Shown here: piece after piece, positions 61,739 to 64,000 of the stretch
Position numbering within the stretch: the first letter of the stretch is position 1
Layout of the letters: each line of letters opens with the position of its first letter
Assembly (NCBI GenBank): GCA_048213135.1
Contig: PS015022.1
Location: 232,915 to 296,914 of the forward strand
Direction: 5' to 3'
Length of the DNA stretch: 64,000 bases
DNA from: Reclinomonas americana ATCC 50394
Lineage: Eukaryota
Notes under the pieces: model-generated
Databases searched by the model: none
What the model saw: only the letters and a program-made list of their open reading frames with translations
What the model was told of the DNA's origin: nothing
Made by a program: the position numbers and the translations under genes

Positions 61739-64000
61739 ATGGTGCGTCGTCACGGTGCTTCTTCTCCTTGTTCTTCTTCTTGTTCTCCTTCTCCTTCTCC
61801 TCCTCCTCCTCCTCCTTCTTCTTCTTCTTCTTCTTCTTCTTCTTCTTCTTCTTGTTCTTGTTCTCCTCCTCTTCCTCCGCCCTCCCCCCCCCCCCTCCTT
61901 CTCATCCCCCTTCTCATCTTACCCGCAGTTCACTGTACGCGTGAGCGCGGCGCATGACTCGCTGCTGTCGGTGGAGGTGGAGGGTATGGCAACCACCTCC
62001 ACTCTCGCAAACTTGCTGGGCGAGGCTGTGCGCTTGCTGCGTGCGAAGAGTGGAGACGGGGCACTGGAGATTGTGGGGGTGGAGAAGCCGATGGAATTCG
62101 ACCTGGAGGATGCACCGGTGACGAAGCTGAAAACGCTGGGCATCAAGGCCTCCACGCATCTTGTGGTCCGTGTGAATCTTGGCGCCGCGCTGTCGTCGAG
62201 TGGAGGAAGTGGGAGGTCTGTGCGTGTGCACTTTCTTCGTGTCGCAATGCGCGCACGCCACTCACTCCTCTGCGTCAACAACAGCACCTCGGAGCGCGAA
62301 ACGCGGTGTGTGCATGTGTCCCGTGAGGTGTCGCCACACACACTCTTCTTGACACTGACTGAGCGCGCAGCATGATCAACTCGCAGCGCATCGACATGGC
62401 TTTTGAGGTCGTCGAGGACGCGATTCGTCTGCGCTGTCAGCGCGAATTGGCGCAGTTCAGTCGCGATCATCCCAACTTTGATGTGCGGGCGTGGGTTCCG
62501 ACGCACGAGCCGCCTGGCATGGACAAGCAGACTCTCAAGCTGTGGCGATCGCGACACAGCCCATTGCACCACGAGTGCAACCTGTACGTCAAGCTGTACA
62601 AGGAGGTGTATGCGCCGATGCTGGAGTGGAAGGCACAGTTCGACGCCGACCCCGCCTCCGATCCGCAGTGCGACGCCTTCGACATGACCGCAATGTGGAC
62701 CATACTGACCAACGGAGGATACGTGGAGGAGACGCCGAGTTCTACTGTGTGCGCCTCGTTTCGGCTGCTGAGTGCGGGCCGGGAACGACATGCAATTAAC
62801 TGTGCACACGATGTTCGCAACAAGTTGATGCACGGACACCAGTGGCAATCGGCGGAAGTGCAGGCGGATCTGGCAGACGATGGTGTGTTCCTCCACATCA
62901 TCTCTCGGCTTTCGTTGACGGCCGATGAGCGTGCAGTCTTTGTCAATCGCATTCGTGAAGCGCGGTTTGTGCAGCTGAATATCAGCACGTACGAAGAGCG
63001 ACTGCATCGATTGGCGTTGCGCGAAATCGAGTTTTATCGATGCGATGAAACATTTCAGAAGAGTATGCAGACCTACGTTCCGCTGCAATGCTCACATGAG
63101 CGTGACGTCTCCGCGAGAGACAAGATGACGGATCTGGTGAAGGAGGTGGATGCTTTCCTCTCCGCCTCCGACACCACCCACCGCGTGCTGGTGCTGTTTG
63201 GCAATAGTGGCGCCGGCAAGACCACCACCATGTCGGTGCTAGCCGAACGAGCATGGCGGCAGCGGCAGGCGGGAGAGAGTCGACGAGTGCCGGTGCGTGT
63301 GCCTCTCGGCGCGCTGCGCAATGCCGACGAGCGATTGTTGGAGGAGGCACTGGAGCGGCTGACGCCCGAATTTGGTTTCGACGAAGACATTCGACGACTG
63401 AAGGATGAACCGTTGCTGTTGCTGTTTGACGGGTACGATGAGTTGTATCGTGGTGTCAATCTGTTTGTCAAGAACCAGTTGGATGCATCCGTATGTCGCG
63501 ACTTGAAGGTGATTATCACCTGTCGAGGCGACTATGCGTTGACGGCACTGGGTGGTATCGCCAATTATCCACGGTTCTTTGCACCAATGGACAGTCACAA
63601 TCAGATGCGCGTGGATCAATTGGTAGAACGGCATATTGCGTCGTTCAACGAGGCGCAGATTGAAGAGTATTTTGACCGATTGGTGAACGTCGACATTGAC
63701 AGCGGTGGAGCCGCGGATGGCGGCGCTGGCGACATGTCGCAGTGGGCCACAGCCGCAGAGTACGTGACCGCGCTGCATGAAGTGCGAGGTCTGAAAGAGC
63801 TGGTGTCGAATCCGTTCATGCTCTCTGTGGTGGCTCGTGTGCTGCCGGCGCTGGTGGCGAGTGGCGTGCATCGCCCGACCCGGTGTGACGTATTTGACCG
63901 CTTCATTCGACAGTGGATCAAGAGAGAACAGGAGAGGCAGACCGGCCTCAATGCCTCGCGGGTACCGAGTGAGGAGAAGTGTCTCGCGTTCTGTGAGGGA
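61739..64000 (+). CDS. NLR-like STAND protein: ubiquitin-like domain, HEPN-like domain and NACHT NTPase (3' truncated by the window)
   Basis: Exons 61739-61741 (ATG only), 61929-62215 and 62371->64000, with no in-frame stop. Walker A GNSGAGKT (63200-63223), Walker B LLLLFDGYDE, sensor KVIITCR, NPFML. Upstream FDMTAMWTIL...DVRNKLMH. UBL-like FTVRV...KLKTLGIKASTHLVVRV. Confidence 0.85.

Follow-up and report, generated by a model that had tools for sequence, protein, structure and literature searches.

Layout of the locus

The window analysed here, that is, the whole stretch of 64,000 nucleotides from Reclinomonas americana ATCC 50394 (contig PS015022.1, positions 232,915 to 296,914 of the forward strand), is intron-rich and GC-rich (~58%) eukaryotic DNA, with a gene structure in keeping with a compact microbial eukaryote. 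The locus in question occupies its end, from position 61739 to the last base at 64000 on the plus strand, and is a real gene, probably of three exons, for a protein with a NACHT NTPase module. The NACHT module is preceded by a helical region of about 250 residues, a candidate HEPN ribonuclease (RNase) domain, and at the extreme N-terminus by a smaller module with a putative ubiquitin-like (UBL) fold. The sensor part of the protein presumably lies past the window end.

A previous, sequence-only reading of this DNA had described the locus as a single open reading frame (ORF) running through 61739-64000. There is no continuous ORF in this interval, and the parts of the protein sit in different frames. 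The ATG at 61739 opens a frame that runs into a stop at 61955-61957. The UBL-like stretch (61929-62215) occupies the frame in which the position modulo 3 equals 0, and this frame is closed by a TGA at 62373-62375. The NACHT module belongs to the frame in which the remainder is 2. Its open frame begins with the ATG at 62372, which is overlapped by the frame-0 stop, and continues on the plus strand for 543 codons without a stop until the window end at 64000. The object described by the earlier reading can therefore exist only as a spliced gene with two GT-AG introns. That reading implied the introns without ever stating them; the three-part gene itself agrees with the coding statistics and with a self-trained splice model. 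All the motifs it quoted were found where it had placed them, in frame from 62372.

In the preferred gene model, the start codon at 61739-61741 constitutes the whole coding part of exon 1, with a splice donor directly after the ATG. Intron 1 (61742-61928, 187 nt) is rich in CT repeats, is bounded by predicted splice sites and has negative codon scores in the exon frame. Exon 2 (61929-62215, or to 62305 with the shorter form of intron 2) has a coding signature and encodes the UBL-like, or beta-grasp-like, module. Intron 2 extends either from 62216 to 62370 (155 nt) or from 62306 to 62370 (65 nt), and both forms are in frame and have predicted splice sites. Exon 3 (62371-64000), the 543 codons of which are open at the window end, encodes the helical region and the NACHT module. 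Residue numbers given below without further comment refer to this exon, counted from the ATG at 62372. An alternative start, ATG 61605 with a donor at 61671, is likewise in frame, and ATG 61739 is preferred to it as the N-terminus.

A gene of the Ribosomal_L1 family, identified by a Pfam match, is situated on the minus strand with its start codon at 61577, ~160 bp from ATG 61739. The gap between the two divergent starts (61577-61739) suggests a very short bidirectional promoter.

Splice sites and coding signal

The splice sites were predicted with a parser that combines codon log-odds with GT-AG sites and re-estimates the site weights in two rounds. The parser was self-trained on the region of the cytoplasmic dynein 1 heavy chain gene, which is located on the minus strand at ~35.5-55.3 kb of the window (35500-55300) and is split into many short exons. 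One exon of this gene scores alike (~203 bits) against human and Dictyostelium cytoplasmic dynein 1, and another scores 133 vs 121, so that the similarity does not point to a taxon. In one exon block three introns are visible by eye, two of them in frame (75 and 72 nt) and one of ~60 nt, with what appears to be the dynein consensus running across them. The parser predicted 62 introns in the dynein region; their lengths extend from 47 to 233 nt and have a tight peak, with the median at 70 nt. Their donors include GTGCGT (11 of 62), GTTGCG (10 of 62), which is unusual yet frequent in this gene, and GTGAGT (5 of 62), and 54 of the 62 acceptors are CAG. The median score of the self-trained donors is 7.2 bits.

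Two other calibrations were given up. A donor consensus derived from strand-asymmetric hexamer counting was dominated by codon bias, and the intron of the Ribosomal_L1 gene has ambiguous boundaries. A kinetoplastid-style polycistron, in which the CT tract would serve as a trans-splice signal, was also considered and was dropped in view of the short GT-AG introns of the dynein and L1-domain genes.

Intron 1 is flanked by the strongest sites of its surroundings. Its donor (atg/GTGCGT at 61742, 8.7 bits) is the top donor in 61580-62420, and its acceptor, ending at 61928 (8.4 bits), is the top acceptor in 61700-62480. Intron 2 has two strong donors, at 62216 (gag/GTCTGT, 7.9 bits) and at 62306 (gcg/GTGTGT, 7.8 bits), which have a common acceptor at 62370 (5.5 bits). 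The total scores of the two forms, 199.8 for 62216 and 200.5 for 62306, are the top two of all in-frame candidates for this intron and are indistinguishable from each other. There are 85 in-frame, stop-free GT-AG pairs in the intron 2 region, so that an in-frame joint alone is not above chance. The splice sites of the three-exon model are plausible.

That the UBL-like exon is coding goes beyond chance. It scores 0.39 bit/codon when read in its own frame, whereas the two remaining frames have -0.67 and -0.37. This signal is as strong as that of confirmed coding sequence: the exon 3 or NACHT part scores 0.26-0.29 bit/codon. The GC content by codon position is 0.66/0.46/0.73 in the UBL-like exon and 0.63/0.41/0.68 in the NACHT ORF.

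These data bear on the possibility that the gene model is wrong. The UBL-like exon could be a separate small gene or a decayed remnant, with the NACHT protein starting at ATG 62372, or the locus could be a pseudogene with a frameshift or reflect an error in the assembly. The lack of a continuous ORF speaks for such an arrangement, as do the draft state of the window, which contains 1111 N, and the abundance of in-frame joints, which deprives any one of them of the value of a proof. The splice model is self-trained and the intron sites rest on prediction, which weighs against the three-exon gene as well. In addition, the frame-0 codon score of the stretch 62217-62370 stays slightly above zero (0.15 bit/codon), which fits read-through combined with a one-base insertion or deletion. 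These points are opposed by the coding signal of the UBL-like exon, by the top local donor and acceptor around intron 1 and by the two strong donors available to the acceptor at 62370. Furthermore, the overlap of the frame-0 stop with the frame-2 ATG leaves no intergenic space for two separate eukaryotic genes, and a frameshift error, if there were one, would still leave both parts in one protein. A wrong gene model is unlikely, and the UBL-like exon is probably a part of the same protein as the NACHT module.

The overlap of the stop and the start forms an ATGA at 62372-62375, which resembles the arrangement of coupled bacterial genes. Situated beside the splice acceptor at 62370, it is probably a product of chance.

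The NACHT module

The NACHT module (aa 254-543, 63131-64000) runs past the window end and is the part of the protein whose identity is certain and above chance. The Pfam NACHT family PF05729 matches aa 271-391 with 35.8 bits against a curated cut-off of 26.7 (E 9.2e-09). The Walker A motif, GNSGAGKT (aa 277-284, 63200-63223), is intact. The Walker B motif, LFDGYDE (aa 351-357, 63422-63442), which is a part of the longer stretch LLLLFDGYDE (aa 348-357), has an intact acidic pair. The motifs VIITCR (aa 380-385, 63509-63526) and NPFML (aa 480-484, 63809-63823) follow. The NACHT assignment of the sequence-only reading is thereby confirmed.

A homologue search with the whole ORF recovered a sole relative, P0002. 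This protein of 1314 aa, which comes from a public assembly, combines NACHT, pentapeptide and WD40 parts and has 31% identity to aa 254-538 (pairwise E 5e-34). A search for nearer relatives with the whole ORF gave no match, and a tblastn search with the ORF and the UBL-like piece found no paralogue in the 64-kb window. The similarity to P0002 comprises the whole NACHT module, with the Walker A, DGYDE, TCR and NPFMLS motifs aligned. P0002 differs in having ~75 residues before its NACHT module and no counterpart of either the helical or the UBL-like part.

The domains of this relative raise the question of whether the R. americana protein has anything to do with defence. It could be a STAND NTPase of the NACHT-WD40 type with a housekeeping or scaffolding function, whatever its N-terminal domains are. 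P0002 carries pentapeptide repeats and WD40/TEP1-type propellers after its NACHT module, which is in keeping with such a role. One survey reports protist NACHT domains solely with ANK, TPR or WD40 repeats; such combinations are common in protists and have no demonstrated immune role there (PMC3879445). The N-terminal part of the R. americana protein argues the other way. It is an orphan, fast-diverged sequence without a homologue in 1.84 billion representative proteins, which better suits a gene driven by conflict, and its HEPN-like neighbours, described below, hint at an effector. A housekeeping role is quite improbable.

The helical region

The sequence-only reading had assigned the region before the NACHT module to the HEPN domains. 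The candidate HEPN-like core lies at ~aa 55-200 (62534-62971). With aa 1-265 as the query, the best cluster in the ESM Atlas is HEPN_DZIP3 (score 0.84), which has PF18738 on 94% of its members and has 169 of 256 features in common with the query. The second cluster is HEPN_Swt1 (PF18731; 0.80, with the family on 99% of its members) and the third is again HEPN_DZIP3 (0.78, PF18738 on 28% of its members). Nine of the ten best named matches belong to one family or clan. HEPN_DZIP3 and HEPN_Swt1 are the two families that the earlier reading had named in advance, and few of the 7.7 million clusters of the Atlas carry either of them. The measure weighs the whole domain and is not fully independent of the motif reasoning of that reading.

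Two motifs stand out on inspection of the sequence. The first, DAFDMTAMWTIL (aa 101-112, 62672-62707), contains the candidate acidic residue of helix 2, either D101 or D104, and may resemble a HEPN family motif. The second, RNKLMH (aa 149-154, 62816-62833), is the candidate catalytic Rx4H motif. In a low-confidence, single-sequence AlphaFold2 (AF2) model of aa 1-250, which has a mean predicted local distance difference test (pLDDT) value of 44 and a predicted template modelling (pTM) score of 0.27, the region is all-helical. The helix formed by residues 126-153 ends at RNKLMH and a loop comes next. The same model has a gap between helices at residues 115-125, and D101 and D104 lie in or before the helix of residues 105-114.

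In HEPN domains, the Rx4-6H motif is described as lying where a helix gives way to a loop, its arginine being followed by one of the polar residues N, D and H (Anantharaman 2013, PMC3710099). The polar residue is present in the R149-N150-x3-H154 arrangement. In the DZIP3-like members of the superfamily, an asparagine after the arginine in combination with the four-residue spacing, as in RNKLMH, is found most often (PMC9646362, PMC3710099). A HEPN fold would be an up-down bundle of four helices in which helix 3 ends with the motif, helix 2 carries an acidic residue and an insert separates the two.

Several results weigh against the assignment. The Atlas scores for aa 1-265 are all below 0.9, the mark under which a match is a lead only; 0.8 is attained by one in three shuffled proteins. 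The recognition value of 2282 is just below the mark of 2300. No HEPN family was found in Pfam with the whole ORF at E<=1 or with aa 1-265 and aa 77-193 at E<=10, where the HMMER filters hide matches weaker than ~E 0.1. PADLOC and NCBIfam likewise gave no HEPN match, and a PDB sequence search with the helical region gave no match. An exhaustive phmmer search with aa 1-265 against the 1.84 billion representative proteins returned one match, P0003, which was rejected as a relative of the helical region, being a tandem-repeat artefact. In a word-indexed homologue search with aa 1-265 at E<=10, none of 624 candidates passed, and in a scan of metagenome contigs with the same query none of 136 pattern matches was confirmed. 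The fold search that had been proposed in the earlier reading was run on the AF2 model, which at pLDDT 44 is of too low a quality to decide on a fold, and gave no HEPN match: Foldseek found nothing with E<1 in the PDB, and its top rows were unrelated. A prediction of a two-copy complex of aa 50-205 gave no answer (score 0.00, with an uncertain fold of the partner).

The RNxxxH motif is weak when it is taken alone, because arginine and histidine are abundant in this region (23 Arg and 12 His in aa 1-253) and such motifs are frequent in shuffled sequences. When aa 1-253 were shuffled 20,000 times, 3.3% of the resulting sequences contained RNxxxH, 15% R[NDH]xxxH, 68% Rx4H and 97% Rx4-6H. Five instances of Rx4-6H are present in the unshuffled region.

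The motif would be lost altogether if a sub-threshold, in-frame intron candidate at 62813-62863, with a donor of 5.2 and an acceptor of 6.7 bits, were used, as its removal would delete RNKLMH. The codon score of this candidate, +4.6 over 17 codons, is coding-like, and similar false intron candidates are also found within the conserved NACHT part. Two more sub-threshold, in-frame candidates with neutral codon scores are present on the plus strand at 62483-62530 (aa 38-53) and 62883-62936 (aa 171-189). If either of these is real, the translation used in the searches holds spurious residues, and this could have weakened the detection of homologs.

The lack of a HEPN profile, PDB or homologue match would fit a helical N-terminus of this NACHT STAND protein that is not a HEPN domain, and is instead a lineage-specific adaptor or another kind of effector. 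It might be a bundle that targets membranes or mediates homotypic interactions, like those of many proteins of fungi and protists that resemble nucleotide-binding leucine-rich repeat (NLR) receptors. RNKLMH would then have arisen by chance, which is easy in a sequence so rich in arginine and histidine, and Atlas scores under the reliability marks fit this explanation too. A study of fungal NLR proteins describes their N-termini as poorly covered by Pfam (PMC9815663). On the other hand, the top language-model neighbours of the region are specifically HEPN_DZIP3 and HEPN_Swt1 rather than scattered helical families, the named matches converge on one family or clan, and RNKLMH has the preferred asparagine after the arginine and is found at the end of a helix. 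A head other than HEPN is a real possibility, although the less likely one.

The HEPN assignment of the earlier reading thus has a lead in the neighbours from the ESM Atlas and receives no backing from profiles, PDB sequences, homologs or the AF2 model. On balance, the sequence makes it somewhat probable that the helical region is a HEPN-type domain.

The ubiquitin-like module

The N-terminal piece encoded by exon 2 has ubiquitin and Rad60-SLD as its named neighbours in the ESM Atlas. Their scores, 0.86-0.89, fall into the range of leads, and the recognition value, 2665, is above the mark. The three best matches of this piece are unnamed clusters. An AF2 model (pLDDT 47.2) has strands at residues 2-8, 12-18, 45-49, 55-57 and 78-83 of the piece and helices at residues 23-41 and 63-69. 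The resulting order, strand-strand-long helix-strand-strand-short helix-strand, is that of the beta-grasp fold.

Several results weigh against a UBL fold. The piece has neither a Pfam family nor a PDB sequence at E<=10. When its AF2 model was compared with known structures by Foldseek and VIA-align, no ubiquitin-like chain was found; none of the Foldseek matches reached E 0.001, and the top ones were unrelated. The model used in these comparisons is, at pLDDT 47.2, again of too low a quality to decide on a fold. The UBL call of the sequence-only reading has a lead in the Atlas neighbours and finds no counterpart in Pfam, the PDB or the fold searches. Judged from its sequence, the N-terminal piece has a fairly good chance of having a ubiquitin-like fold.

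Proposed mechanism

The best explanation of the locus, which has about an even chance of being correct in all its parts, is that it represents one spliced gene for a divergent, NLR-like STAND protein of the DZIP3/Swt1-type HEPN-NACHT class, to which a ubiquitin-like module has been added. The domain order would be the ubiquitin-like module, the orphan helical sequence of ~250 residues with its HEPN core at ~aa 55-200, and the NACHT module.

The HEPN-NACHT and HEPN-STAND proteins described in the literature suggest, by analogy, a plausible mechanism. Binding of a ligand by the C-terminal part would release the NACHT module. The released module would exchange its nucleotide and oligomerise, and oligomerisation would bring the N-terminal HEPN domains together in pairs as active dimers. 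These dimers might then cut RNA, either of the invader or of the host, in a reaction that is free of metal ions and employs R149 and H154. The ubiquitin-like module might control turnover or stability of the protein or recruit a partner. We infer the HEPN fold, the RNase activity, activation by dimerisation, the UBL fold, the immune role and the expression of the gene. The claim of the earlier reading that the protein is a sensor-activated RNase is, by the same analogy, a plausible one, with a candidate HEPN domain as the putative nuclease.

Comparison with known systems

DZIP3-like HEPN domains N-terminal to NACHT are on record for animals, and the combination is expanded in Nematostella, oyster and Capsaspora (Anantharaman et al. 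2013, Table 1, PMC3710099), and more than 50 N-terminal HEPN-NACHT proteins are reported for the pearl oyster (PMC9646362). The DZIP3/hRUL138-like HEPN-NACHT proteins of bivalves, cnidarians and Capsaspora (PF18738 and PF05729) resemble the R. americana protein in having a helical domain with R-N-x3-H directly before the NACHT module. Further points of likeness are the C-terminal repeats (LRR, TPR or WD40) that would be expected and the predicted activation of an RNase by oligomerisation. Unlike those proteins, the present one has a helical domain without a PF18738 match and without sequence relatives, and an extra UBL-like module in front of it.

HEPN-STAND fusions are also described in bacteria (PMC3710099, PMC8195603). 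The bacterial conflict proteins of this kind, as characterised in these two papers, have the same position of the HEPN effector (here a candidate) N-terminal to a STAND NTPase. However, the present gene is eukaryotic and spliced, its NTPase belongs to the NACHT family, and no sequence link was found between the N-termini.

The combination of ubiquitin-like and HEPN domains in one eukaryotic protein has a parallel in sacsin, according to Table 1 of PMC3710099. In sacsin, however, the HEPN domain belongs to the HEPN-T type and is found at the C-terminus, a long way from the UBL domain; sacsin has no NACHT module, and no similarity to it was found. Ubiquitin-clan (Crinkler) N-termini are reported on fungal NLR proteins, so that these Crinkler NLRs (PF20147) likewise have a ubiquitin-clan module at the extreme N-terminus of an NLR-type NTPase (PMC9815663). 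They differ in that the UBL-like piece described here has no Crinkler or ubiquitin match in Pfam (E<=10) and in that a helical region of 250 residues is found here before the NACHT module. Choanoflagellate NACHT-LRR proteins are described as having no Death or CARD domains (PMC6040629). No description of the UBL-HEPN-NACHT order was found in the papers returned by the literature searches, supplementary tables aside.

Other features of the window

The 1111 N of the window form runs at ~950-1650, 6300-6700, 7470-7490, 22600-23000 and 34480-34500. The runs are situated within low-GC stretches rich in CT/GA and CA/GT microsatellites. They are assembly gaps in repeats, and the record is therefore a draft.

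Two ankyrin-repeat ORFs on the minus strand (14279-16792 and 18498-19466), with a weak PH-domain match, adjoin an ORF for a WD40 propeller (20085-20801); the group extends over 14279-20801. Another ORF on the minus strand, 30854-31711, has a homeodomain-like WFQNQRSK at its start and contains long poly-Thr, poly-Ala and poly-Asp runs. In Pfam this ORF gave weak low-complexity matches only.

Implications

The certain part of the locus, the NACHT gene, is ordinary. The remainder makes the locus a reasonable, as yet unproven, candidate for something less common. The boldest form of the proposal is that an orphan, lineage-specific family of HEPN RNases serves as the effector head of a UBL-capped NACHT receptor in a microbial eukaryote that is not an animal; this form is less likely than not.

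HEPN-NACHT proteins are abundant in invertebrates, where they are candidate antiviral receptors that cleave RNA. For unicellular eukaryotes, the NACHT proteins on record usually have repeat domains only and no recognised effector (PMC3879445). If the proposal is true, NLR-like receptors armed with an RNase would exist outside animals and bacteria, by descent or by convergence, and RNase heads of this type would be able to escape all present profile libraries. Should the RNase head be confirmed, the protein would offer a small and tractable model of how the oligomerisation of a STAND NTPase switches on a HEPN nuclease.

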